Assembly (NCBI GenBank): GCA_965227095.1 | Contig: CBDDFL010000001.1 | Span: 85,539 to 149,538, forward strand | Source: Alphaproteobacteria bacterium | Lineage (GTDB): Bacteria; Pseudomonadota; Alphaproteobacteria; JANQMY01 | Direction: 5' to 3' | DNA: 64,000 nucleotides | In this document: positions 2,461-30,647 of the stretch, piece by piece | How the letters are laid out: each line of letters opens with the position of its first letter | Position numbering within the stretch: the first letter of the stretch is position 1 | The notes under the pieces: generated by a model | Told to the model about the DNA's origin: nothing | Seen by the model: only the letters and a program-made list of their open reading frames with translations | Database searches by the model: none | Program-made: the position numbers and the translations under genes

Positions 2461-3306
2461 ATGAGATTCCACTGCCATCGCGCCTATGCTTTTCGCGCGC
2501 TGCCGGGCGATGTAAACAACCGCGGCAAGCAGACGTGGCTCCTTATCGAAGGCGCGCAATAGAGCAACCCTTGCATAGTCGTCGATGCCGGAGCTTGAGA
2601 TGGCCGCTTTGACCAGTGGACGGGATTGGGCTGCATCAATTGCAGCAAGGCCAAACAGCCTTACTTCCAGCCTGTGGCCCTGAAGAGCGTATAACGGATC
2701 TCCGCGGAAGGCCTTTAATGATATGGCAAAGGTGACCGCGCGCATTGCGCGCCGAAATTGCTTGGAGCTGCGTAATCGCGCGGCGTATTCAAGCCGCGCG
2801 GCGCCGTTGCGCGCACGATTTATCAGCTTTTCGGGCATCTGTTCGCCACTGGCCTTGCCGAGCGTCGGCACAAGTCTCGTCCCACAAACCTGGCAGTCGA
2901 ATGCCCAGGCTCGCCTCCAATGCTTGAGCGAAAGGCCCTCTCTGGAACATTGCAGGCAATGCTGGAATGGTATCTGGGCCGTCAGCGAGGCTTCTCGTGT
3001 CGTCATTGCTGGGAAGGTCAAAGATCGCACAACATCTGGGTCAATCCGTGCGGCGTTGGCAATCTTCGCCGCCGCAGCCGCGTCGACGTTGAAGTTCAAG
3101 GCGGTGCCATGCGCGGTATCGATTCTGAGATGAGCCAGTAGTTCCGCATCATCACAGTAGTTGGCCGCCGCCAGCCTAGACAACCAACCTGACAACAACT
3201 CGTCGGGCAGCGGCGCGACAGTCTTGGGCAGCGGGTGCGGCTTCACACCCCGGACTTCTCGAGCCGCCGATGGGGGTTCGCATGGCGCGACCAAACCGGC
3301 GTCCAT
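2455..3306 (-). CDS. tniQ: TniQ-family transposition protein
   Basis: N-terminus ...LPDELLSGWLSRLAAANYCD... plus Cys pairs (CLQC...CQVCG) are typical of the TniQ/TnsD domain; lies downstream of tniB, overlapping its end. Confidence 0.7.
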   Translation of the reverse strand: MDAGLVAPCEPPSAAREVRGVKPHPLPKTVAPLPDELLSGWLSRLAAANYCDDAELLAHLRIDTAHGTALNFNVDAAAAAKIANAARIDPDVVRSLTFPAMTTREASLTAQIPFQHCLQCSREGLSLKHWRRAWAFDCQVCGTRLVPTLGKASGEQMPEKLINRARNGAARLEYAARLRSSKQFRRAMRAVTFAISLKAFRGDPLYALQGHRLEVRLFGLAAIDAAQSRPLVKAAISSSGIDDYARVALLRAFDKEPRLLAAVVYIARQRAKSIGAMAVESHN

Positions 3307-4241
3307 TTTGCGATTGCGTCATCGGTGATGCATTCATCACCTGTGACAATGGCGTCGATGGAAAGATCCTTGATCAGGGCGAAGATGCGCGAGGTCACCC
3401 CGCCGGTCAGCGCAAGTATCTGCTTTAGTGACTTGACCTTCAGATTGGATTTCTTCTCGAGGGGCATTGCCGCGATGAGTGTCTGGATCATGTCCGAGAA
3501 CTCGGCGTCGTCGCGCCAGTTTGGAAGGTGATGTTCGTCCAGCCGCCTGGCAAGCTGGATATCACCACGGATGGCATCGACGGCCTCGCTGACCCCCAGG
3601 CAGACCAGCGACACTTCGAGTTCATTGCTGAGATACCGCAGAACATTGAGAAAGCGGCGCTGTTCGCGGTGGGTCCCGGCCAAGAGGTTGTGGACTTCGT
3701 CGATCATGATCATCCGCAGGCCAAGGTCGCGCAAGAGCGCGACGACACGGACTTCGAGGGAGGCCACATTTTGAGCGCGCGCGCTCAGTGCCGTGGCCGG
3801 TGCCCCGACGGTCGCCAGGATGTGCAGATAGAACCGTCGTTCGTCGGGAGCTGGTGGTGCTTGTAACAGTAACAGCGGCGTTCGCGTAATTCCCGATGCT
3901 GGGTCATATTCCGGTGCATATCTGCGCGAAAGATTGCGGGCGATCATCGTCTTTCCGATCCCGGACGCGCCATGCACAAGAAGGCCAGGCATACGGGTTT
4001 GCCTTGGCGCTTCGATCATACACTGCAAACGGTCCAGAACTTGTTCGGCCCGCGGAAAGCCAATCCAGATATCCGATTGAATGAGGGTGATCCGACCGTC
4101 TTCCTCTGTTTTTCCTGCCCTCAATTCACCATCTCTCCACCTTGAACAATGGGCGCGATGTATCACCCGTATCGATCGCGCGCAGCCCTTCGGTTGTTGA
4201 GACGGCCGAGTTGGCGCCCTCCAATGTCCCTTTTCTTTCAC
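3243..4241 (-). CDS. tniB: TniB AAA+ ATPase (transposition helper, TnsC-like)
   Basis: Walker A GASGIGKT and Walker B MIMIDEVHNLL; size and position after tniA. The annotated start overlaps tniA by 116 nt, so the true start may be an internal or non-ATG codon. Confidence 0.8.
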   Translation of the reverse strand: MKEKGHWRAPTRPSQQPKGCARSIRVIHRAHCSRWRDGELRAGKTEEDGRITLIQSDIWIGFPRAEQVLDRLQCMIEAPRQTRMPGLLVHGASGIGKTMIARNLSRRYAPEYDPASGITRTPLLLLQAPPAPDERRFYLHILATVGAPATALSARAQNVASLEVRVVALLRDLGLRMIMIDEVHNLLAGTHREQRRFLNVLRYLSNELEVSLVCLGVSEAVDAIRGDIQLARRLDEHHLPNWRDDAEFSDMIQTLIAAMPLEKKSNLKVKSLKQILALTGGVTSRIFALIKDLSIDAIVTGDECITDDAIAKWTPVWSRHANPHRRLEKSGV

Positions 4242-5775
4242 GGGATCGGCGTTCGGCCCTCGTCAGGCTCCGGCTTTCAGACTCGATTTGGCGTTGCTGT
4301 CGGATCAGCTCAGCCAGGACCAGCTCATTGGACCCGGACTTGCCAAGGGCACGGGCATTCCTCATGGCTTCGCGATATTCCCAGAGCGACACAGGCGGAA
4401 TTTCCAGGTTTCGGTACCGAGCTTCGACGTATCGGTCATTATCCAGTTCGACCCAGATCACCGAGAGGTCGCGAGGGTCGTAGCGGACGACCACCTTTCC
4501 ATCCCCGCGCCCGATGTGGCCTGCAAGCGCATCGGACCAGTACCGTATCTGGAACAGATGGATGCCGTCACGCCTGACCTTGCGCAGTTCACTTGGCAGA
4601 AAGCTCACCCGAAAGGCTTCAATCTCGAAGGGGATATCGCCCATCATTTGCTCTGAGAGCGCCTCCCATTTGGCAACGGGCGTGCAGCCAAGACTTGAAT
4701 GAATGCTGTTGTTGTAGCGGCAGATTTCCAGAGCAAACCAGCGATCGAAGTCGCTTAAGGTCATCGTGGCCATGCCCTCGGCGTCATAGTCGCCCTTGGC
4801 CACGACCGAGGATTGCGTTGTTCCAGGCAACAGGTGCACGGCCCCCATCATCGTGCCGATCAATCGTTCGATGTGCCCTCCGAAATGAGGACTGCCTGGC
4901 GGCCGATAGACCAGATCGATCCCCCATTCCGCACATGCCGACCGAAAGGCATGCGACCGGAAATCGCGCCCGTTATCGACGTGGATGCTATGCGGTTTAC
5001 CCTGCGCGGGCCAAGGAACATTGCGCACCAATTCCGCCAGAAGTTCCGCCTTGGGGGCCACAGCCTGTGTCAGGCAAAGCGCCACCGACAGACGCGAAGG
5101 TGCCTCGAGAGAGGTGTAATATCCGGTCACCATCCGCGTTGCGACGTCGATCGCCAGCGTGACCCAAGGCCGCCCAATTGGTTTGCGTTCAAAACTGTCG
5201 ACGAGAATGATGTCCGCAGGCGTATGGTCGATTTGCACGACCTCCAGTGGCCGGTTTGCCTTGTTGTCGCCTACGACCGGCGCAAATTTCTGGCGGGCCG
5301 CCTTTGCGCCTTCGCGTGCCTTGGCAATTTCACGGGCATCCATTGCATCCAGCCTGCGCTGAACCGTCCGACGTGTCGGCGGTTGCAAGCCCTGCTGCCA
5401 GCACGCGCTTCGGATTTCTGTCACGATGCGCGACAGGCTTGGGCGTTCCCGCCGTAAGAAATAACGGCGAAGATGTTCTTCGATCACCGCTTCCACCTTG
5501 CCGGATATCAAGGTTGTACCAGTCGGGCGGCCCCGTTTCCGAGAAGCCAGCGCGCTGGTGCGCCCACCCTCTTCGGCCAGACGCTTTATCCAGCGCCAGA
5601 CAGTCGCCCTGCTGACACCAAGCTCCCAAACGGCGTCATTGATGCCACTTTCCAGACTGCCAGTTCCTTTGAGATATGCCTGAACAAGCGGACGCAGAAC
5701 GGCCGCCCTGCGCGCCTCCTCAGCACCAGCGGCAACGAAGTCTTCGCGATCATCATCCATCAATATTTGCCACAC
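4126..5775 (-). CDS. tniA: TniA DDE transposase (Mu/TnsB-like, rve integrase core)
   Basis: N-terminal HTH region, then integrase core ...VVQIDHTPADIILVD...WVTLAIDVATRMVTGYY...HVDNGRDFRS... (D, D, E spacing typical of the TnsB/TniA/MuA family). Confidence 0.85.
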   Translation of the reverse strand: MWQILMDDDREDFVAAGAEEARRAAVLRPLVQAYLKGTGSLESGINDAVWELGVSRATVWRWIKRLAEEGGRTSALASRKRGRPTGTTLISGKVEAVIEEHLRRYFLRRERPSLSRIVTEIRSACWQQGLQPPTRRTVQRRLDAMDAREIAKAREGAKAARQKFAPVVGDNKANRPLEVVQIDHTPADIILVDSFERKPIGRPWVTLAIDVATRMVTGYYTSLEAPSRLSVALCLTQAVAPKAELLAELVRNVPWPAQGKPHSIHVDNGRDFRSHAFRSACAEWGIDLVYRPPGSPHFGGHIERLIGTMMGAVHLLPGTTQSSVVAKGDYDAEGMATMTLSDFDRWFALEICRYNNSIHSSLGCTPVAKWEALSEQMMGDIPFEIEAFRVSFLPSELRKVRRDGIHLFQIRYWSDALAGHIGRGDGKVVVRYDPRDLSVIWVELDNDRYVEARYRNLEIPPVSLWEYREAMRNARALGKSGSNELVLAELIRQQRQIESESRSLTRAERRSRERKGTLEGANSAVSTTEGLRAIDTGDTSRPLFKVERW

Positions 5776-5797
5776 GAAGCTGCGAACCCTGTCTCAG

Positions 5798-5906
5798 GTT
5801 TAAGGGCAAAAATATCGGATTTAAAGGCAAAATATCATATTTAAGGGCAAAGCAAGGCCGTTGATTTCGTTGGATTTCTCATCTCACAATTAAGGGCTAC
5901 GCGACA
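5798..5906. repeat. Right-end transposase-binding repeat array (TTAAGGGCAAA-like x4) incl. terminal IR
   Basis: gtttaagggcaaaaat (5798), ttaaaggcaaaat (5821), ttaagggcaaagc (5841) at ~20-bp spacing, then caattaagggctacgcgaca ending at 5906. Confidence 0.7.
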
Positions 5907-21072: not shown

Positions 21073-21810
21073 CTACACGGACACTTTTTGATCGGCGCCC
21101 GTCTCTTTGGGGAGGGGCGCCATCTTCGTTTCAAGCGCCGAAATCTGGTCCCGAAACCGTCGCGCCGTGTCGTCATCGGCATAGGCCAGAAGATTGCACA
21201 GCCCCGTATGTTCGACGCGGGTCACAAAGTCCGCATCGCTCAACGCCCCCCGCGCCCACAAAATGGCCGTGCCGAACCAGCCCACCGTCAATTGAGAAGC
21301 GAGAATGTGCGGGTCGAAGCGCGCCGCCAGCGCCCCTTGTTCCAAGGCGCGGATCAAGGCGGTTTCCGCAAGTCCGGCGCCAAATTCCATGAACTCCAAA
21401 GGGCGGCTGGGGGAGCCCAAGGGGCGGTCCTTGTCGCCCGCCCACATGGGATGAAAGAGCGCCTTGCGCGCAATGCATTTTTCCGCCGCCACCGTCATGA
21501 TGGTCAGCACCTGCTCGATGGGGTCTTGATCTTCGGGGAGCGCCGTCAGTTCTTCTTCCAGGGTCGAAAAGGCGCGGTCTTCCAGCACGGCGGCGATGGC
21601 TTCCTTGCCGCCGCCATAGAGGTTGTAAAGCGTCTTGACGCTCAGCCCCACTTCCTGGGCCAGCGCCCGCATGGTGAAAGCGCTCAAGGAATCGCGCATG
21701 ATCAACCGCTCCGCCGAATCCAAGATTCGCTGGCGCCTGGCCTCCATATTGAGTGCGCGTTGATCCATCCCGACCACGGTCGATCCCATTGAGTCCCCGA
21801 TCTTTGGCAT
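21073..21810 (-). CDS. TetR-family transcriptional regulator
   Basis: HTH RQRILDSAERLIMRDSLSAFTMRALAQEVGLSVKTLYNLYG; divergent from the CYP153 gene. The true start is probably an internal Met (MDQRAL or MEARRQ). Confidence 0.8.
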   Translation of the reverse strand: MPKIGDSMGSTVVGMDQRALNMEARRQRILDSAERLIMRDSLSAFTMRALAQEVGLSVKTLYNLYGGGKEAIAAVLEDRAFSTLEEELTALPEDQDPIEQVLTIMTVAAEKCIARKALFHPMWAGDKDRPLGSPSRPLEFMEFGAGLAETALIRALEQGALAARFDPHILASQLTVGWFGTAILWARGALSDADFVTRVEHTGLCNLLAYADDDTARRFRDQISALETKMAPLPKETGADQKVSV

Positions 21811-21854
21811 CTAGCAAGTTGGCGCCGCAATCCGCAAGTGCCATTCACATTTTG

Positions 21855-21899
21855 CTTGACTACAACGCCGTTGTAACTTACAACATTGTTGTAGTCAAG
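21855..21899. promoter_or_regulatory. Nested perfect palindrome, likely TetR operator in tetR/CYP153 divergent promoter
   Basis: Outer IR CTTGACTACAAC (21855-21866) / GTTGTAGTCAAG (21888-21899); inner IR GTTGTAA-C-TTACAAC (21870-21884). Confidence 0.6.
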
Positions 21900-21917
21900 A
21901 TTTTCCCGGAGATCTCC

Positions 21918-23192
21918 ATGAGTCAGGCCGCCCTGAAACCGTCCACAACAGACACTTTCGACCCAAACGCGATCGCGCTGGAGGACATCGATCTGACGGA
22001 CGCGAATTACTATTTCAACCAACAGCATTGGGCCCTGTTCGAACGCCTGCGCAATGAAGATCCGGTGCATTTCTATGACCATGAAGAATTTGGCCGCATC
22101 TGGTCGGTGACCCGCTATGCGGACATCATGGCGGTGGACACCAACCACAAAACGTTCTCCTCCGAACCGTCCATCTTTATCGTCGATGGGCCCACGGGCG
22201 ACGATGAAAACTTCGACCCGGAAACCTTCATCGCCATGGACCCGCCAAAACACGACATTCAGCGCAAAGCGGTGACCCCGGCCGTTTCGCCCTCTGCGTT
22301 GATGGATTTGGAACCCCTGATCCGCGAGCGTGTGTGCAAGGTGCTCGACGGCTTGCCGGTGGGCGAAACCTTCAACTGGGTGGACCGGGTGTCGATCGAA
22401 ATCACCACCCAAATGTTGGCCACCCTGTTCGATTTCCCCTTCGAAGACCGCTACAAGCTGACCTTCTGGTCAGACCTCACAACCGCCAACGAAGAAGTGT
22501 TGGAAGAAATGGGGCTCACGGAAGAAGAACGCCGCGGACACCTGTATGAATGCTTGGAAACTTTCGGCAAGCTTTACGCCGAACGCGCGGCTCTTCCGCC
22601 TGCGAATGATTTCATCTCGCTGATGGCTCATAACGAGCATATGAAAAGCCTGGACCCCATGAACTTGCTCGGCAATCTGATGCTGCTGATCGTGGGCGGC
22701 AACGACACCACGCGGAATTCCATGTCCGGCGGCGTGCTGGCCCTGCATAACCATCCGGACCAATTCGCGAAGCTGAAGGCCGACCCGTCGGTCATCCCGA
22801 ACATGGTGTCGGAAATCATTCGTTGGCAGACGCCGCTGGCCTATATGCGCCGCACTGCCACGGAAGATGTGGAACTGGGCGGCAAGACCATCAAAAAAGG
22901 CGACCGGGTATTGATGTGGTACATCTCCGGCAACCGCGACGAGCGGGACATTGACCGCCCCAATGAATTCCTGATCGACCGGGAAGGCGCCCGCCGCCAC
23001 CTATCCTTTGGCTTCGGCATTCACCGCTGCATGGGCAACCGTGTGGGCGAAATGCAGGTGCGCATTCTGTGGGAAGAAATTCTCAACCGCTTCGACCGGG
23101 TGGAAGTGGTGGGCACGCCCGTGCGCACTTTCTCGAACTTCGTGATGGGCTTCACCGACCTACCTGTCGTCGTGCACCCGAAGACGAGCTAG
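21918..23192 (+). CDS. Cytochrome P450, CYP153 family (alkane/alkyl omega-hydroxylase-like)
   Basis: CYP153 signatures LLIVGGNDTTRNSMSGG, EIIRWQTPLAYMRRTA, heme loop FGFGIHRCMGNRVGE. Confidence 0.9.
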   Translation: MSQAALKPSTTDTFDPNAIALEDIDLTDANYYFNQQHWALFERLRNEDPVHFYDHEEFGRIWSVTRYADIMAVDTNHKTFSSEPSIFIVDGPTGDDENFDPETFIAMDPPKHDIQRKAVTPAVSPSALMDLEPLIRERVCKVLDGLPVGETFNWVDRVSIEITTQMLATLFDFPFEDRYKLTFWSDLTTANEEVLEEMGLTEEERRGHLYECLETFGKLYAERAALPPANDFISLMAHNEHMKSLDPMNLLGNLMLLIVGGNDTTRNSMSGGVLALHNHPDQFAKLKADPSVIPNMVSEIIRWQTPLAYMRRTATEDVELGGKTIKKGDRVLMWYISGNRDERDIDRPNEFLIDREGARRHLSFGFGIHRCMGNRVGEMQVRILWEEILNRFDRVEVVGTPVRTFSNFVMGFTDLPVVVHPKTS

Positions 23193-23204
23193 GCGATCAG
23201 CCTT

Positions 23205-23232
23205 GACGGACGGGGTTTGCAACCCCGTTTAC
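23205..23232. repeat. REP-like palindrome (degenerate copy) immediately after CYP153 stop
   Basis: gacggacggggtttgcaaccccgtttac (compare consensus TTGACGGACGGGGTTACAAACCCCGTCCGTCAA). Confidence 0.5.
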
Positions 23233-23238
23233 CTCTGT

Positions 23239-23637
23239 TTATTTCTCACCAGGTTCACCTTGCGCGGTGGAGAGGAGTCTGACCAACAGTCCAAGCAAGG
23301 TCAAAGAGATTAGACCGTAGAGGCCGACGATTGACCAGCCATTTTCATTCGCCCCGGCATACTGTCCCTGGATCGCCATGACCGTGCTCAAAGACGTTGC
23401 GATCAGAAGGGATGACACAAACCCCATACGCAGGTTTCTATCCTCAGTTCGACGGGCGAACCATGCGCACATGCCCATGCCGATGAGTGTCGAGCCCCAG
23501 AACCGATAGATGACGATCCCCATGGCGCTCAATTGAACATCGTAATTTGCCAACATATCTTCGGGGAACAGAACACATAGAGCGCCAGAGACAATGGTTA
23601 CTACGGCCAAAATTGAAAGTACCAATTTATACGTCAC
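23239..23637 (-). CDS. hypothetical small membrane protein (4 predicted TM)
   Basis: 132-aa hydrophobic ORF; no family recognised. Confidence 0.5.
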   Translation of the reverse strand: MTYKLVLSILAVVTIVSGALCVLFPEDMLANYDVQLSAMGIVIYRFWGSTLIGMGMCAWFARRTEDRNLRMGFVSSLLIATSLSTVMAIQGQYAGANENGWSIVGLYGLISLTLLGLLVRLLSTAQGEPGEK

Positions 23638-23676: not shown

Positions 23677-24984
23677 TTAGGCTGACAAGCTCAGCCCCAC
23701 TTGCTTTTTGACCTGGGCCAAAGCAGCGCGATAGGTGTCGATATGCACATAATTTGCATGTCGTTGAGAGTCGACATAACGGTGGCCAGCCGTGAGGTCG
23801 GGCTTATGCGTCTTTTTCATTTTTGAAAGCTTTTCTTTCAAGGGCGATTCGGCATTGGCCGCGGCATCTGCCGCGATTAACTCAGCCATCTGATCAAAAT
23901 TTGCGTATGCCGCCGAGGAGAATTCCACAAACCCAAGAAACGCCAAATTGCTGTGCTTTCTGGAAAACATTCCCAAATAAAGATCGGGCCGCCCCTTCTT
24001 TTTGTCTACGTCGGCTGGGTCCAGGAACGGGATGTCGTGTTTGTATCCGGTCGCCGCTATGATGAGATCCACCTGCTCTCTAGACCCGTCAACAAATTCA
24101 ACACAATGGCCATCCAATCTCGCAATGTCCGGTTTAACGACACAATCGCCGTGCCCCACATAGTGCAGAATCTGGGTGTTCATCAACGGATGAGATTGAA
24201 ACAGTTTGTGGTCCGGCTTCGGAAATCCGTATCTCGCAACATTGCCATTCATCAAGTTCAGGATCAACGTGATTGCCGGCGTGGAAATCCAGTCCGGAAG
24301 CTTGGCCCCTTTCCTCGCAAACACATCCGTCGGCTGTCCCATGATGTATTTCGGCACAAAATGATAACCCCTTCGTACGCTGATGAATGTCTGCTTCGCT
24401 GCAAATGCCGCATCACACGCAATGTCTGCGCCGGAATTCCCAGCGCCAACGATCAGCACACGTTTTCCAGCAAACTCCGACGGCGATCGATATGTGATTG
24501 AATGTCGAATTTCTCCGTCAAAATTTCCGGGCCATGAAACTAAGTTAGGTTCCCAAGTCACTCCATTGGCGCAGATCAAATAACGGGCGGTAAGGGTTTC
24601 ACCCTCTTTCGTTTCTAACTTCCATTTCCCCTGACGGTCACGCTTGGCATGGGTAATATGGGTGTTCAGTCTTACGTGTTTGCGTAAATCAAACGTGTCG
24701 GCGAACGACCGGATATAGTCGAGAACAAGTGTGTGATTTGGGTAGTCGGGGTAACCATCGGGCATTGGAAATCCGGGAATTCCCGACAATGACCGAGACG
24801 AAATAAAGTGGGCGGAGTCGTACATCGGCGATCCAGGTGCATCAATGTCCCAAACACCTCCTACGTCAGACCCACGATCAATTAACTGAAACCTTGTGTC
24901 ATATGACTGGAGGTGTTTTGCCAGAATCAATCCGGCAGGGCCCGCACCAACAACCAAAACATCCCATTCTTTCGTCTCATTCAT
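23677..24984 (-). CDS. Flavin-containing monooxygenase (FMO-like, two dinucleotide-binding motifs)
   Basis: VLVVGAGPAGL (FAD) and LIVGAGNSGADIA (NADPH) GxGxxG motifs, FMO-like FxGxxxHS region. Confidence 0.85.
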   Translation of the reverse strand: MNETKEWDVLVVGAGPAGLILAKHLQSYDTRFQLIDRGSDVGGVWDIDAPGSPMYDSAHFISSRSLSGIPGFPMPDGYPDYPNHTLVLDYIRSFADTFDLRKHVRLNTHITHAKRDRQGKWKLETKEGETLTARYLICANGVTWEPNLVSWPGNFDGEIRHSITYRSPSEFAGKRVLIVGAGNSGADIACDAAFAAKQTFISVRRGYHFVPKYIMGQPTDVFARKGAKLPDWISTPAITLILNLMNGNVARYGFPKPDHKLFQSHPLMNTQILHYVGHGDCVVKPDIARLDGHCVEFVDGSREQVDLIIAATGYKHDIPFLDPADVDKKKGRPDLYLGMFSRKHSNLAFLGFVEFSSAAYANFDQMAELIAADAAANAESPLKEKLSKMKKTHKPDLTAGHRYVDSQRHANYVHIDTYRAALAQVKKQVGLSLSA

Positions 24985-25004
24985 TCAAATACCCCCCCTC
25001 TTTC

Positions 25005-25048
25005 GTGACTAGTAGTCACGTTACAAAATACGACTATTAGTCACGTTT
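25005..25048. promoter_or_regulatory. Candidate operator in FMO promoter: palindrome GTGACTAGTAGTCAC plus direct repeat of CTAnTAGTCACGTT
   Basis: gtgactagtagtcac at 25005-25019; ctagtagtcacgtt (25008-25021) and ctattagtcacgtt (25034-25047), 20-60 bp upstream of the FMO start. Confidence 0.45.
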
Positions 25049-25230
25049 TGAGTTTTGTCAAGCGGAACTCCGCATCGGAAACACGCAGACGACAGAAAAG
25101 TTTCGCTGCTCTTTCACCGGATGAGGGAGCCGACCGTTCTCCAAAAGGAAAGTTGGGGTGTTCAAATTAAAGCACGCGGTCGAAACAATGTGCCGCGAGA
25201 ATGTCGGTTGCGCCGTGCTAAGCAGCATTA

Positions 25231-25309
25231 CTCAGCACTCAGCACTCAGCACTCAGCACTCAGCACTCAGCACTCAGCACTCAGCACTCAGCACTCAGCA
25301 CTCAGCACT
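25231..25309. repeat. Heptanucleotide microsatellite (CTCAGCA)x11.3, perfect
   Basis: Direct reading of ctcagca repeated 11 times plus ct, ending at the tetR stop codon (25309-25311); lies in the 324-bp FMO upstream region. Confidence 0.95.
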
Positions 25310-25932
25310 TAAGATACCGATCGATTTTCCAAAATATGCAAGCAGGTTAATCCACAGAAGGCATCAATCGTTCTTTTTGCCTCCGCTGGAGACAGGACTG
25401 CTACGAGACGAATTGCGGCATCTGCCAATTCCAGCATCAACAAGACGCGCTCCGCAATCGATTTGCGGGACCCGTGAACACCTCGGCTCGCCAAAAACCC
25501 AGCGACGATTTTTGCGTTCTTTCGACTGTCTTCCAAATCCAGACGCGAGAGCTCCGGATCTTCACGAATAACGGCTCTCAACTGCACACGAAACGGTTCT
25601 CTTTGATGCCGTTCAAGATATTCCCGAAAGCCAATGCGCAATATTTCCTCCGGCGATATATCCGGCCCAATCGTTGCGTGGATCAGATCAGCCCCATCCT
25701 TATAGACCCGTTTGATAAGCGCATGGACGATTGCCGGTTTTCCCGGGAAATACCGATAGACTGCCGCTTTCGATATCCCGGCCCGTTTCGCGATTTCGGT
25801 AATCGTGATCTTGTCGATACTATTGGACGACAACAACTCCTCCAGCGCCCCCAGAATCGATTCAACACCGGTCTTGCTTCGGGTTTGCTCGGGTTCACGT
25901 CTGAGCTCTAAGTCTGTGTTAGACATTCTCAT
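25309..25932 (-). CDS. TetR-family transcriptional regulator
   Basis: HTH ITITEIAKRAGISKAAVYRYFPGKPAIV; 207 aa. Confidence 0.85.
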   Translation of the reverse strand: MRMSNTDLELRREPEQTRSKTGVESILGALEELLSSNSIDKITITEIAKRAGISKAAVYRYFPGKPAIVHALIKRVYKDGADLIHATIGPDISPEEILRIGFREYLERHQREPFRVQLRAVIREDPELSRLDLEDSRKNAKIVAGFLASRGVHGSRKSIAERVLLMLELADAAIRLVAVLSPAEAKRTIDAFCGLTCLHILENRSVS

Positions 25933-26091
25933 TCAATTCCTTATGTCGGTCGCGCCGGAGAAGCTGACATCGTGTTTTGTAATCCTACCCTCGAGAAGCT
26001 CGACATGCACCGTCGCTGATGGAACCGAATAGGAAATGCCACACGAACAGAGCAACAAGGCCATAACGACGCTGGCAATGAGTCTTGGCAT
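25933..26091 (-). CDS. possible small lipoprotein (52 aa), not in supplied ORF track
   Basis: Manual translation MPRLIASVVMALLLCSCGISYSVPSATVHVELLEGRITKHDVSFSGATDIRN; signal-peptide-like with Cys; stop abuts the tetR start codon. Confidence 0.25.
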   Translation of the reverse strand: MPRLIASVVMALLLCSCGISYSVPSATVHVELLEGRITKHDVSFSGATDIRN

Positions 26092-26133
26092 TTTCTAACC
26101 CCCAATTCGGAAAATGGGTCTAGTTTCTCTATT

Positions 26134-26170
26134 GATGGGCGGGGTTACAAACCCCGTCGGTCGCCCGCCT
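26134..26170. repeat. REP element copy 2
   Basis: gatgggcggggttacaaaccccgtcggtcgcccgcc; palindromic core GGGGTTACAAACCCC. Confidence 0.7.
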
Positions 26171-26179
26171 TAAAGCGTC

Positions 26180-26956
26180 TTAGCGCGGCGACCGCCCATA
26201 GACGAGGCCGAGGCCTTGTGTCTTGTATCCTAACAATACCAACAATTCGTCCGACGCGGTTTCGATCACTTCCTTGTCGAGTGACAGAAACCAGTTTTCC
26301 TGCGTTCGGTAAATCGGCCTCGTGTACCAGCCGAACAACGCCGCGCGCGGATGTTGGGAACGGTTGCTGCCGGTGCGGTGGCGCACGCGGCTTTCGAACA
26401 CCATCAGCGTTCCCGCCGGTGCGATCACGGGAATCGCTTTTGCGGGAAGCTCGGTTTCGTCCGCATCGCCGGGCAACACATGGCTGTGTGGCACCACTTC
26501 GGTTGCCCCATTATCCGCCGTGAAATCGTCCAGCAGCACACCCACATTCATGCCTTGCGGGGCCGCCGGCCATGGCGTGGGCACGAAAAGCTGATCGGCA
26601 TGTAACATGCCGCCGTCACTGCCTGGTTCGGCGATATTGGCGGAGATATTACCGAGGAGCGCCGGCCAGCCGATCACCTCGCGTAACAGGTCGAGCACGA
26701 TCGGCAATTGGACGATGTCGCGAAACACCGCATCGCGATTGAGAATGTTCCAAACACGGACATTTTTATCGCCATAATCCAGGCCGAACATATCGGCTTT
26801 TCGGCCCAGACGCCGGTCCTCGTCCACCGCCGCATAGGTCGCGGCGCGCGCCGTTTCCAGTTGCGCGGCCGACAGCTGTCCACAGATCAACGCCAATCCG
26901 TGCTCGCGAATATGGTCCTTGGCATCGGCAGCGTTATCAACGACGGGAGGGAGCAT
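26180..26956 (-). CDS. Phytanoyl-CoA dioxygenase (PhyH) family Fe(II)/2OG oxygenase
   Basis: HADQ...H...R pattern (GGMLHADQLF, TEVVPHSHV, RHRTGSNRS), 258 aa. Confidence 0.8.
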   Translation of the reverse strand: MLPPVVDNAADAKDHIREHGLALICGQLSAAQLETARAATYAAVDEDRRLGRKADMFGLDYGDKNVRVWNILNRDAVFRDIVQLPIVLDLLREVIGWPALLGNISANIAEPGSDGGMLHADQLFVPTPWPAAPQGMNVGVLLDDFTADNGATEVVPHSHVLPGDADETELPAKAIPVIAPAGTLMVFESRVRHRTGSNRSQHPRAALFGWYTRPIYRTQENWFLSLDKEVIETASDELLVLLGYKTQGLGLVYGRSPR

Positions 26957-27030
26957 GGTTACGTCCAGATTTGTGCAGCGGTTGTGACGATCTCATAGTA
27001 TGACACAACCAATTGACATACACCTCCCTA

Positions 27031-27064
27031 TTGACGGTCGGGGTTACAAACCCCGTCCATCAAC
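27031..27064. repeat. REP element copy 3
   Basis: ttgacggtcggggttacaaaccccgtccatcaa. Confidence 0.8.
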
Positions 27065-27077
27065 TGGGAACCAATCC

Positions 27078-27620
27078 TTAGCTTCTACCGTCGGGATCAC
27101 TTTCGCCGCCATCCTTCCAATTCTGTTGAAGGTCTGTCCACAGTTTGGACTGCTGATCAGGCGAGTCGAGACGGGATTGAAGATAAGTTCGCGGGCTGGG
27201 GGGAACGATATGGGTGTTTTCTGTTTGGGTCCACCATTCCGGAATTGACCGAATGGTAACAAGAAGAGATTGCATGATCACTTCAAACGATTCCTCATCC
27301 AACAGGCCCTTTTCGTACAATTGCAACGCGTCATGCGCATTTCCCAAATAGCGCCACATGAACATGTCGAACGACGAGCTGTCCTGCTGGTCCATTGTTG
27401 CGTATCCATTTACCGCCGCCAGCATGATGCGACGCAATTCGGCGTTTTTCGCAACATCCCAAGAGTTGCCGTGAAAATTGCCCATAACGGACCGTGCGCT
27501 TTCGATGCGATAGTTGCGATTTGACTGGCGGATCTGAATCGCGAGGTAAATGAGCGATAAGATGACGCCCACTGCCGCCAAAAAATCTGAAATCGCGCTA
27601 ATGGCTGACCAGTTCATCAT
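27078..27620 (-). CDS. hypothetical membrane-anchored protein (paralog of 27843-28364)
   Basis: N-terminal TM ...VGVILSLIYLAIQIRQSNRNYRIESARSV resembles ...AAILGSLIFVGVQIRQNTLATRRQSLDGV of the neighbour. Confidence 0.55.
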   Translation of the reverse strand: MMNWSAISAISDFLAAVGVILSLIYLAIQIRQSNRNYRIESARSVMGNFHGNSWDVAKNAELRRIMLAAVNGYATMDQQDSSSFDMFMWRYLGNAHDALQLYEKGLLDEESFEVIMQSLLVTIRSIPEWWTQTENTHIVPPSPRTYLQSRLDSPDQQSKLWTDLQQNWKDGGESDPDGRS

Positions 27621-27683
27621 CTTTCCTCTCGTTCACATCAGGGATTTTTAGTTGATTTTCCAAAGGATGTCTTCTCTACATTC

Positions 27684-27729
27684 TCTCGACGGACGGGGGG
27701 ACGGGGTTACAAACTCCGTCCGTCAACGG
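27684..27729. repeat. REP element copy 4
   Basis: ctctcgacggacggggggacggggttacaaactccgtccgtcaacgg. Confidence 0.8.
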
Positions 27730-27842
27730 AAACTGTGATGCAACCAATGTCACTTCTCTCATCGGCCTGACAATGACATTCTTTGATCAGACAGATAATG
27801 TCGCTCGTCTGCAAAACACCTCTTTTATGCGGGGAGAAGGTC

Positions 27843-28364
27843 ATGTCGCTCGAGACCATTTACTATATCGGCCAAACGATTGCCGTTGCGGCGATTCTAG
27901 GTTCGCTCATATTTGTTGGCGTTCAAATTCGCCAGAATACGCTTGCGACCAGAAGACAATCTCTAGACGGCGTGATTGACCGAATTGTTCGGTGGCAGTC
28001 AAGGCTAACCAGCACGCCGACTCATGTGGATAGCTGGGTCAAAGGGCTGCAGAACTTTGACAGTCTTCCCGTTGAAGAAAAAATCCATTTCAATGCCCTC
28101 ATCATAGAAATTCTGGTAACTCTCGAGGCGGGACGAGAGGCCGGTAAGACGGGCGATATTAAGCCTGAAACCATTGAGGCGATGGACGGCATGATCGTCC
28201 AACTCTTCCGAAACGCCGGCGTAAGGGAATATTGGCGCCAAGCAAATTACGCGGCGGATTTTATGGCCTACGTCGATAAAATTACAGAGAAGGTGACAGC
28301 GATCCCCAATAGTGACCCCGGGTCCTTGCCGTTTTATGTACCGCCGGAAGAGGCAACTCAATGA
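27843..28364 (+). CDS. hypothetical membrane-anchored protein (paralog of 27078-27620)
   Basis: GGAGAAGG SD before the ATG at 27843; the same N-terminal TM-IQIRQ architecture as the divergent neighbour. Confidence 0.55.
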   Translation: MSLETIYYIGQTIAVAAILGSLIFVGVQIRQNTLATRRQSLDGVIDRIVRWQSRLTSTPTHVDSWVKGLQNFDSLPVEEKIHFNALIIEILVTLEAGREAGKTGDIKPETIEAMDGMIVQLFRNAGVREYWRQANYAADFMAYVDKITEKVTAIPNSDPGSLPFYVPPEEATQ

Positions 28365-28519
28365 AATGCGATGCAGTCTGGTCTGCTCCCTTCGACATTG
28401 CCTTTGGACTGTGATGACCGGATCAAGTATTGCAGCGTTTGGTTTTTTTGAAAGAGATCTAAGGTTATCCGGCCGTTTATGAACATCATAACAACGTCCA
28501 CGTCATAAAAATTCTTCAC

Positions 28520-28557
28520 TCTCGACAGACGGGTTTTGTAACCCCGTCCGCAGGTTC
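28520..28557. repeat. REP element copy 5 (inverted relative to copy 6; flanks RAYT start)
   Basis: ctctcgacagacgggttttgtaaccccgtccgcaggttc. Confidence 0.8.
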
Positions 28558-28559
28558 AT

Positions 28560-29111
28560 ATGATCCGCCTATTAGATCGGAGAACGTGGCCTATGCCAAT
28601 CGTGCGTATCAAACCGTTTGCAAAAGATGGTGTCTATTTCGTGACGCCGACGGTTTGGAATTGGTACTACCTGTTCGATCGGCACAATCGGTGGCAGATC
28701 ATCGCGGACAGTCTGCGGTATTGCCAAGATCACAAATCTCTCAAGATCTACGCTTACGTCTTCATGCTGAACCATCTGCATTTGATCATTCAGGCGGACG
28801 ATGCCGAAAACGTTTTGCGGGATTTTAAGCGGCACACCTCAAAAGCGCTCAAAGAGAATATTCGCGCAACGGAACCAAATGTCCTGACATTATTCGAAAC
28901 CACTGATAGCACCTGGCGTCTTTGGAAAGCAGATAACCAACCACAGCTGATTGAAACGGAAAAGTTCTTTCGCCAGAAGCTCGATTACATTCACGCCAAC
29001 CCCGTACGCAAAGACGACGGGTCACAAGCCGAACACTGGAAATGGTCATCCGCTAATCCGGATAGCCCTCTAAAAATTGAACCGTTATCCTTATTGACGG
29101 GACAGCAATGA
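28560..29111 (+). CDS. REP-associated tyrosine transposase (RAYT, IS200/IS605-like Y1 HUH)
   Basis: HUH motif MLNHLHLIIQ and catalytic Tyr region LDYIHANPVRK; 183 aa; flanked by inverted REPs. Confidence 0.85.
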   Translation: MIRLLDRRTWPMPIVRIKPFAKDGVYFVTPTVWNWYYLFDRHNRWQIIADSLRYCQDHKSLKIYAYVFMLNHLHLIIQADDAENVLRDFKRHTSKALKENIRATEPNVLTLFETTDSTWRLWKADNQPQLIETEKFFRQKLDYIHANPVRKDDGSQAEHWKWSSANPDSPLKIEPLSLLTGQQ

Positions 29112-29149
29112 ACCTGCGGACGGGGTTACAAACCCCGTCCGTCAATGGC
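29111..29149. repeat. REP element copy 6 (flanks RAYT stop)
   Basis: gaacctgcggacggggttacaaaccccgtccgtcaatggc; the outer arm gaacctgcgg is the inverse of ccgcaggttc at copy 5. Confidence 0.8.
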
Positions 29150-29187
29150 ATAGGCAGCGTTGTCAACGAGAGGCGGCAGCACGTTTA
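29150..29187 (-). pseudogene. 12-codon remnant of a second PhyH-like gene start fused to REP copy 6
   Basis: The rc reads GTG-LPPLVDNAAYA..., compared with the intact PhyH N-terminus MLPPVVDNAADA; about 80% nt identity over about 100 bp to 26921-27030, including upstream sequence. Confidence 0.45.
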
Positions 29188-29418
29188 CGTCCGTATTTGT
29201 TTGGGCGGCTGAAGACGCTTCTCAGTATGGCATAGACATGATGCGTGCTTATCCCGCTCTCTACGCGGGAATAGGCAACATTAGCGAACGAATCACTAAC
29301 CTGGCAGCCTAATTAAGTATAGCAGGTGCCAATTTGGTGGGAAACCAAATGGATCGCACTTGCCCTCCATCGGTGCTTTGTTATTCTGGGACAATCTTAA
29401 CGATAATGGAGGAAGCTC

Positions 29419-29847
29419 GTGTCTACACCGACAGACGGTAGTTTTGACGCCCTAAATCTAGACGCTGTCTTAAACACAGCTGTTGATCAAGCCTCTGGAA
29501 TAATCAGCAGTGTCAAAAATCCTTCGTGGGATAAACTATCGCCGGTAAAGCAGTTCCCCGGCAAAATTTCGAAAAATGTCATCCCAATAGATTTTGAAGA
29601 ATATCGGATGCAGATTGTCACAAAAGTTGAACCCGGCACTCTTGTCGACACACATAAGCATGTGGAATCCGTATTCCGATATGTCCTGGATGGCGACCTT
29701 ACAATAAATGGTCTGGCACACGGACCAGGTGATTGGGTACTTGTCCCTGGAAACACCCCATATCGAGTAACAACAAACGGCGGATACACAGTTCTAGCTT
29801 CTTACGGAGCCAAATGCGGATCCCCACATGACCGCGTCGTTAAGTAA
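29419..29847 (+). CDS. cupin-domain protein
   Basis: ThkHvesvFryVLdGdLti...GpGdwvlvPgn pattern of small cupins; located in a low-GC islet. Confidence 0.55.
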   Translation: MSTPTDGSFDALNLDAVLNTAVDQASGIISSVKNPSWDKLSPVKQFPGKISKNVIPIDFEEYRMQIVTKVEPGTLVDTHKHVESVFRYVLDGDLTINGLAHGPGDWVLVPGNTPYRVTTNGGYTVLASYGAKCGSPHDRVVK

Positions 29848-29926
29848 GACATTGAAACATCAGCACAGAACCTTTGCGGACGAGATATCAAACTGTCGAT
29901 AGATAATCTATGTGGGGTTTCGCTGA

Positions 29927-30616
29927 ATGCCTCTCACCATGACTATATTTCCAAAATTAAATGAGAAGGTACTAATACGGTGGATCGAGACATATTGCGA
30001 GCTCCATGATGTTTCCCATTGTCGTCCAAAAGTTTTCGCCGAATCCGATTGGGAAACCGATATTGATATTTTTGCAGATCAGAACAGTTGGGTGCGCGTG
30101 GAATGGCCTCCGTTATTCGGTATAAACACGGTCCCAGCTTCAGAGTATTTTTCACGAGCGCTTGATTCTGTCGTCGTTTCCTCGGAATTTCTTGATGACC
30201 ACGGATGGACCTATGTGATTCTGGATCGAGGCGTGATCAAGGACAAGTTTGTAAATTCACGTTTCAGATATAACCTTACCGAGGAGGAGGCAAAAGATTA
30301 CGTCGGGAATGCAGAGATTTTGGCTAAACACTTCAACATCCCTACACAGAATATCATTCCGTATTTGCGGCACATTGAAAGCTATGGAATATGGGATGAG
30401 CTAAAAGTCTTGTTGGGCTTAAAAATGAGACCCAAACCAATTGGCAAAGTTTTTTTGGATGACCGCTATCAATTGGATGACGAGCGTGTTTTTTTTGATT
30501 TTTGGCGCCGACTTGGTTTTAATCTTTCTTACGATGGTGCACCTGCAGGAACTGCTCGAATCAAGATAAAAAAAGGCTTTCACGACAAGTTCCCCAAAAA
30601 TCAAATAAGTTTCTAG
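29927..30616 (+). CDS. hypothetical protein (low-GC islet)
   Basis: 229-aa ORF, about 40% GC versus about 60% surroundings; no family recognised. Confidence 0.5.
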   Translation: MPLTMTIFPKLNEKVLIRWIETYCELHDVSHCRPKVFAESDWETDIDIFADQNSWVRVEWPPLFGINTVPASEYFSRALDSVVVSSEFLDDHGWTYVILDRGVIKDKFVNSRFRYNLTEEEAKDYVGNAEILAKHFNIPTQNIIPYLRHIESYGIWDELKVLLGLKMRPKPIGKVFLDDRYQLDDERVFFDFWRRLGFNLSYDGAPAGTARIKIKKGFHDKFPKNQISF

Positions 30617-30647
30617 CGACCTCCACGTTATCACAGCAAACTGGCCC

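Follow-up and report, generated by a model that had tools for sequence, protein, structure and literature searches.

A heptanucleotide microsatellite of variable length between the tetR and flavin monooxygenase genes of an alphaproteobacterium

Heptanucleotide repeats in bacteria

Heptameric simple sequence repeats (SSRs) are over-represented in many bacterial genomes, where they are intergenic (Rehm et al., PMC4692102), and they vary in length and sequence at the same site between close relatives, sometimes as inverted pairs (PMC4692102). Over-represented heptamers were surveyed by Mrazek (2007, as cited in PMC4692102), and one proposed cause cited in the same paper is polymerase slippage, favored at a unit size of 7 nucleotides (nt). 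Here we describe a heptanucleotide SSR, with the unit GTGCTGA, in a 64,000-nt stretch of DNA from an Alphaproteobacteria bacterium (assembly GCA_965227095.1, contig CBDDFL010000001.1, positions 85,539 to 149,538), hereafter called the window. A glutamine-tRNA ligase marker puts the organism among uncultured Alphaproteobacteria, its nearest named relatives being metagenome-assembled genomes of Rhodospirillaceae/Rhodospirillales with 70-74% identity. The tract follows the stop codon of a tetR gene and lies upstream of a gene encoding an FMO-like flavin monooxygenase. We consider it likely that the tract is a fast-evolving intergenic microsatellite located in the 3' untranslated region (UTR) of tetR, and a member of the known class of variable intergenic heptamer repeats.

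Two other systems resemble this locus. TAACTGA repeats are distributed patchily among phyla and have been proposed to act post-transcriptionally (MacGregor, PMC4679880); they form sets of 2-6 copies, mostly located a few nt upstream of start codons (PMC4679880). In Haemophilus influenzae, the (ATCTTTC)n repeats of the hmw genes give a proven phase variation by means of a transcribed 5'-UTR hairpin that is cut by RNase III (PMC12721329).

Sequence and position of the tract

The repeat and its flanking genes are the following, with coordinates of the window:

25230..25309, minus strand: heptanucleotide SSR, supported by Tandem Repeats Finder (TRF), a two-unit probe search and the sequence itself, unique in the 64-kb window
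25309..25932, minus strand: gene of a TetR/AcrR-family regulator of 207 amino acids (aa), with Pfam matches to TetR_N (3.8e-12) and TetR_C_22 (1e-9) and syntenic orthologs in the two comparator loci described below, L001 and L002
25311..25309, minus strand: tetR stop codon TAA, from the open reading frame (ORF) listing
23677..24984, minus strand: gene of the FMO-like flavin monooxygenase, 435 aa (Pfam PF00743, 1.7e-47)

The original prediction, made from the DNA letters, had described eleven exact heptamer copies running up to the tetR stop codon, about 250 bp upstream of the FMO start, and both points were borne out. TRF reported at 25230..25309 a tract of period 7 with 11.4 copies, 100% matches, 0 indels and a score of 160, and its near edge lies 247 bp from the FMO ATG, within a tetR-FMO spacer of 324 bp. 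The other 17 TRF rows in the window have at most 2.8 copies each, and the two-unit probe CTCAGCACTCAGCA, with up to 2 mismatches allowed, gave 10 matches, all of them within the tract (0.29 expected from shuffles). The unit reads GTGCTGA on the coding (minus) strand and CTCAGCA on the plus strand, and the order on the minus strand is tetR-TAA-(GTGCTGA)11-G-TAATGCTG-CTTAGCAC. The first base of the array is also the final base of the tetR stop, the periodicity overlapping this codon by one base, and the tetR and FMO genes are co-directional, both on the minus strand. All three sense frames through the tract are closed by TGA. The tract is outside any coding frame and constitutes a long uninterrupted non-triplet SSR in non-coding DNA.

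Comparison with related loci

Comparators in public data were limited to L001 and L002. The first, an ENA metagenome contig of 10.5 kb, is syntenic with the window and shows 96.5% nt identity over 7 kb. The second is a Logan contig in which the tetR-FMO order is kept, with TetR and FMO proteins 64 and 67% identical to those of the window. At the same site, L001 shows TAA-(GTGCTAA)5-GTGCTGA-G-GAATGCTG-CTTAGCAC, that is, 6 units versus 11 in the window, and 5 of the 6 are the one-base variant GTGCTAA. The flanks are conserved between both loci, the 52 nt directly 3' of the tract being identical, and the tetR-FMO spacer of L001 (288 bp) is shorter than that of the window (324 bp) by five units plus one base elsewhere. 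Because the L001 array lies between conserved flanks, the tract changes much faster than the sequence around it, in its length as well as in its unit. The fast change anticipated for a repeat of non-triplet unit was therefore found, and the comparison of copy number across strains, proposed as a check, revealed a polymorphism between two closely related genomes.

The 64-kb window and the 10.5 kb of L001 contain one heptamer array each, and L002 contains none. Exact-sequence look-ups of the TetR, FMO, PhyH and DUF8292 proteins encoded in the window found no further assemblies on record, and each cluster in the protein cluster listing holds only the window protein and the L001 protein. Scanning metagenomes with TetR yielded no further alleles, the 21 loci obtained being at most 46% identical and restricted to the helix-turn-helix region; the FMO homology search returned close matches only in L001 (99%) and L002 (67%).

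Like the GGGAATC repeats of Xanthomonas, the GGGGA(T/C)T repeats of Nostoc and the cyanobacterial STRR heptamers, the tract is a 7-nt tandem and intergenic repeat, variable in length and unit. As in STRR-type heptamers, it has an inverted copy and can form a stem-loop, and it is not known to have a clear link to gene function. The traits of the heptamer-repeat class observed are the intergenic tandem array, the variation of length and unit, and the existence elsewhere of same-unit arrays that are partly inverted. Many dispersed arrays per genome, another trait of the class, were not found in the 64-kb window, in the 10.5 kb of L001 or in L002: STRR-type families have tens to hundreds of copies per genome, whereas the window has a single array and its genome does not appear to be rich in heptamers. 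Unlike the units of those heptamer families, GTGCTGA is not G-quadruplex-forming.

Slipped-strand mispairing would be the most likely origin of the tract and the most likely mode of its change. The seed may have been the tetR stop codon together with the 5' arm of a small hairpin located directly after it. The sequence TAA-GTGC-TAAG contains TAAG twice with a spacing of 7 nt, and therefore the stop codon and the hairpin 5' arm already form a proto-repeat; the unit of L001, GTGCTAAG, is fully complementary to the downstream CTTAGCAC. From such a seed, the GTGCTGA variant would have expanded to 11 copies in the window lineage and the GTGCTAA variant to 5 copies in the L001 lineage. Changes in length would have at most a quantitative effect on the 3' end of the tetR mRNA, through its stability or its insulation from FMO read-through, and the length of the tract would not switch the FMO gene on or off.

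Hairpin and folding

A hairpin is formed at the promoter-side edge of the tract:

25215..25238, minus strand: hairpin made of the last unit plus G (GTGCTGAG, 25238-25231), the loop TAATGCTG (25230-25223) and the arm CTTAGCAC (25222-25215)

The arm CTTAGCAC is one inverted repeat unit and the loop has 8 nt, so that the hairpin is lopsided, with a right arm of a single unit; the region complementary to the repeats in the window has only 8 nt. According to the pattern search the hairpin is unique in the window, and its 3' arm and loop are the same in L001. The sense RNA of the window allele folds with -68.1 kcal/mol (z = -3.8 versus shuffles) as a long G.U-rich hairpin of the array on itself, and in this fold the final unit pairs with CUUAGCAC. 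The RNA fold of the L001 allele was not better than shuffles (z = -0.96), and neither was the single-strand DNA folding of the tract (z = -0.56).

REP/BIME-type elements and terminators can stabilize the upstream mRNA or stop read-through. The tract resembles REP/BIME hairpins and intrinsic terminators in being located directly 3' of a gene and in its possible hairpin. Unlike them, it has no T-run, its stem consists of tandem repeats and its sequence is unrelated to the neighboring REP-like hairpin ACGGGGTTnnnAACCCCGT. The hairpin tail, GGCGCAACCGAC, contains no T, and thus the stem-loop followed by a U-run that characterizes an intrinsic terminator is not present. No terminator-like site was found in a scan of 24800-26200, and Rfam gave no match in 24700-26300 at E <= 1. 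A minus-strand ORF of 56 codons (25228..25058), with its start codon in the loop of the hairpin, was rejected, since in L001 it has a stop after codon 29, and it is probably non-coding.

Predicted FMO promoter and operators

The region between the hairpin and the FMO start codon contains the following features:

25062..25214, minus strand: spacer from the hairpin to the FMO promoter, conserved in L001 and largely absent from L002 in the alignment
25033..25061, minus strand: predicted sigma70-type FMO promoter, with -35 TTGACA at 25061-25056, a 17-nt spacer and -10 AATAGT at 25038-25033
25030..25044, no strand assigned: operator-like palindrome 2, ACGACTATTAGTCAC, a 2-mismatch copy that overlaps the predicted -10
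25005..25019, no strand assigned: operator-like palindrome 1, GTGACTAGTAGTCAC, an exact copy between the -10 and the FMO start codon

The promoter scan of 24800-26200 gave this single site, with 10/12 consensus matches, and one such match alone is not above chance. TTGACA and the promoter layout are kept in L001 and L002. The palindrome and repeat that had been noted near the FMO start are real: GTGACTAGTAGTCAC and its 2-mismatch copy are the only two copies of the 15-bp palindrome GTGACTAnTAGTCAC in the window (0.04 expected), and the alignment shows both conserved in L001 and L002. Palindromes that overlap a promoter beside a tetR gene are the usual appearance of a TetR-repressed promoter. 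At the FMO gene the palindromes overlap the predicted promoter, adjoin tetR and are conserved in the orthologous loci. The FMO gene is probably the target of the TetR regulator and, judging from these sequence features, TetR most likely controls it by attaching to the two GTGACTAnTAGTCAC palindromes, which overlap the putative promoter of the FMO gene itself.

About 170 bp separate the tract from the predicted -35 downstream of it; neither the predicted core promoter nor the predicted operators include the repeat, and the promoter and palindromes together are found about 170-300 bp downstream of the tract. In L002, the tetR-FMO spacer has 165 bp and no repeat, yet TTGACA and both palindromes are present; therefore, the promoter-operator module exists independently of the tract. 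The original prediction had located the tract in the FMO promoter and had pointed to phase-variable regulation, and neither was supported. The repeat is outside the reading frames and the predicted core promoter, which is not the position of a contingency locus, and a phase-variable control of the FMO gene is unsupported. For the locus itself this has few consequences: an ordinary gene under TetR repression is the best reading of FMO, and the repeat is best taken as a fast-evolving addition to the 3' end of tetR, whose main use is that of a strain marker and of a clear case of two units growing from one proto-repeat.

GTGCTGA arrays in other genomes

One genome per species was scanned for arrays with at least 3.1 units of GTGCTRA, and all counts of genome arrays given in this work are among the matches listed. 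GTGCTRA arrays were found in at least 120 loci of about ten phyla, the taxa including Nostocales, Acidobacteriota, Chloroflexota, Gemmatimonadota, Chlorobi, Nitrospirota, Planctomycetota, Spirochaetota and several Pseudomonadota; none of these listed genome loci was homologous to the window locus. Such tracts had been regarded as rare in high-GC environmental proteobacteria and as unexpected beside a catabolic monooxygenase. This does not agree with the at least 120 loci that bear arrays, with the over-representation of intergenic heptameric SSRs in bacteria (PMC4692102), or with the G+C content of the window, which is about 0.48-0.65 and mostly 0.55-0.58, with an average of about 55-57%.

Exact arrays were 140 for GTGCTGA versus 5 for GTGCTAA. 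Most arrays are short, with 3-4 units in 117 of 150, and only seven of the 150 have 11 units or more, which places the window array in the upper tail of lengths. With a greedy longest-ORF gene model, 118 of 150 arrays are intergenic. The array-bearing regions are convergent, tandem and divergent in 30, 48 and 9 cases, respectively, versus 112, 407 and 121 of the background junctions, and the enrichment of convergent over divergent regions gave p = 0.001. In tandem regions, sense arrays are found at a median of 6.5 nt after the upstream stop (17 of 24 within 30 nt). In the same regions antisense arrays (35) outnumber sense arrays (24), and thus no rule of orientation holds throughout. Within 90 nt, 40 of the 150 arrays have an inverted unit on their 3' side and two on their 5' side, so that the hairpins have a strong polarity, with GTGCTGA first and TCAGCAC second, and 13 of 30 hairpin-type cases show a T-rich tail. 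The commonest arrangement of GTGCTGA is that of the window, in which a sense array adjoins a stop codon and is followed on its 3' side by an inverted unit; the window array departs from the others only by its length and lopsidedness.

As a specificity control, stretches with at least 3.1 units were counted in viral contigs. GTGCTGA gave 27 stretches, three composition-matched permutations gave 9, 4 and 6, GTGCTAA gave 4, TAACTGA gave 82 and CCCCAGT gave 2. Every control heptamer forms arrays, and GTGCTGA is moderately favored in these contigs, 3-7 times commoner than its permutations. A literature search for the unit, with all rotations and both strands, returned only unrelated eukaryotic motifs and no bacterial description. 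If the placement pattern of GTGCTGA is upheld with proper gene calls and an all-heptamer control, it would bear on the unexplained excess of heptamers long noted in bacteria.

Alternative explanations

GTGCTGA arrays could be selected cross-phylum elements, either 3'-end RNA hairpins that act as stabilizers or terminators, or multivalent protein-binding sites as proposed for TAACTGA, although we regard this as rather unlikely. The tract resembles the TAACTGA repeats of Beggiatoaceae, Cyanobacteria and Bacteroidetes in being an intergenic heptamer that contains stop codons, ends in CTGA and is patchily distributed among phyla; unlike them, it follows a stop codon, has 11 copies and is located 247 bp from the next start codon. 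The spread over about ten phyla, the 27 stretches against 4-9 for the permutations in viral contigs and the 140 arrays against 5 of GTGCTAA agree with selection, and so do the preference for convergent over divergent regions, the abutment to stop codons, the hairpin polarity (40 versus 2) and the T-rich tails. Against it, the window and L001 show one array each and no dispersed family, the window hairpin is devoid of a T-run and antisense arrays exceed sense arrays in tandem regions. Furthermore, the wholesale change of unit between two close relatives argues against a strict sequence recognition and, as all control heptamers make arrays, slippage of the polymerase at units of 7 nt (proposed in literature cited in PMC4692102) may be a sufficient explanation.

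A second explanation, which seems unlikely, is that the tract is transcribed, in the tetR 3' UTR or in a tetR-FMO read-through RNA, and works as a contingency rheostat whose length-dependent hairpin tunes TetR dosage or read-through, as in hmw1A. The SSR is long, perfect and of non-triplet unit, the two closely related genomes have different numbers of copies, no terminator-like site was found between tetR and the FMO gene, which run in the same direction, and the sense RNA forms a long G.U-rich hairpin (z = -3.8). There is also the HMW precedent of a heptamer SSR acting through a transcribed hairpin (PMC12721329): like the repeats of hmw1A and hmw2A (PMC12721329, PMC8262952), the tract is a heptanucleotide SSR located upstream on the same strand with 11 or more units, and in the folding model it would be the left arm of a long RNA hairpin. 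However, the hmw repeat is placed between promoter and start codon, in the 5' UTR, while the tract precedes the predicted FMO promoter, its hairpin has a right arm of only one unit and the FMO gene encodes no surface adhesin. The predicted promoter and operator module of the FMO gene is conserved and is present in L002 without the tract, and the L001 allele folds no better than shuffles. In addition, contingency loci are typically surface or restriction-modification genes, whereas this locus encodes a regulator and a cytoplasmic flavoenzyme of a free-living alphaproteobacterium.

Both ideas can be combined in an undescribed cross-phylum family of GTGCTGA arrays, consisting of stop-abutting RNA hairpins comparable to TAACTGA, in which the window copy is a length-tunable rheostat on TetR dosage and FMO read-through. 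We consider this combination quite improbable; if true, a metabolic regulator of a free-living alphaproteobacterium would be under the control of a contingency-like rheostat.

The two remaining explanations have very little probability even taken together. That the array was created or inflated by an assembly or polishing error is highly improbable: repeats are error-prone in assemblies and several same-unit arrays in public metagenome-assembled genomes are at contig ends, but in the independent assembly L001, derived from another ENA sample, precisely this site also bears an array, and therefore the tract is not an assembly artefact; moreover, the window lies in a 3.18-Mb contig and the 80-nt tract is shorter than a typical read. 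That the tract is a coding repeat on the plus strand is practically discounted, since, although the three plus-strand frames are open in the window (giving HSALSTQ repeats) and ORFs 25055..25312 and 25158..25571 cross it, the L001 unit TTAGCAC places TAG in all three plus frames, the longer ORF is antisense within tetR and each 7-nt slippage shifts the frame; the plus-strand ORFs were accordingly rejected, every frame being closed in L001.

A microsatellite that changes by slippage in the tetR 3' UTR remains the explanation that we favor, and several points weigh against it. Its variation is documented by two alleles in public data, and the RNA fold of the window allele is significantly stable while that of the L001 allele is not. 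The putative FMO promoter is a consensus match no better than chance, supported mainly by its conservation, and without a canonical terminator the tract could belong to a read-through tetR-FMO transcript and affect expression. The unit is also not arbitrary, given its 3-7 times excess over permutations and the 140 arrays versus 5 of GTGCTAA, which hints at a structural or functional preference beyond neutrality. Finally, the gene context of the arrays at the class level derives from a crude longest-ORF gene model.

Neighboring genes and repeats

Upstream of tetR there is another oxygenase gene:

26956..26180, minus strand: PhyH-family dioxygenase gene, from ORF and Pfam evidence

The FMO protein scores below the curated cut-off of every specific NCBIfam model, so that neither a substrate assignment nor the description of the enzyme as catabolic is supported. 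Genes of a cytochrome P450 and a DUF8292 membrane protein (21753-23637) directly adjoin the FMO gene and are syntenic in L001; the best NCBIfam match of the P450 is SolI-like, with 448 bits, under the cut-off of 850. Together, the predicted P450, DUF8292, FMO, tetR and PhyH genes look like a small oxygenase cluster. In L002, an integrase-core (rve_3) fragment is located at 3004-3171, just downstream of the FMO gene, and this arrangement suggests that the tetR-FMO pair may move in mobile or variable contexts.

The REP-like hairpin ACGGGGTTnnnAACCCCGT shows six copies in the window, at 23210, 26139, 27038, 27701, 28529 and 29120 (0.31 expected), all of them in intergenic gaps of the P450/FMO/tetR/PhyH neighborhood and none elsewhere in the 64 kb. 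One copy is found between PhyH and tetR, and the tetR-FMO gap has the heptamer tract instead of a REP copy. A link of the tract to these RAYT/REP-like elements was rejected because their sequences are unrelated. An ORF of 183 aa at 28560..29111, on the plus strand, has a weak match to the IS200/Y1 transposase family (PF01797, E = 1.1e-3), below cut-off, and the motif NHLHLII. On either side of this ORF there is a 36-nt inverted repeat (28524-28559 and 29108-29143, 94% complementary) that holds the hairpin GACGGGGTT-ACA-AACCCCGTC, and by its layout 28524-29143 appears to be a RAYT/REP-like unit.

On both sides of this unit, 26967-28523 and 29145-30641 are absent or different in L001, and the G+C content falls to 0.48 at 28-30 kb; from their sequence, the two segments look like a small variable island beside the locus. 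The first segment holds two unannotated ORFs, 27078..27620 (minus strand) and 27783..28364 (plus strand), whose hydrophobic N-terminal segments resemble each other weakly and precede a QIRQ motif (E = 6e-5). In a distant part of the window, at 4126-5851, there is a minus-strand ORF of 549 aa with similarity to IS481/IS630-family transposases below curated cut-offs, and a 20-nt tandem repeat of 2.8 copies (5794-5851) adjoins it.

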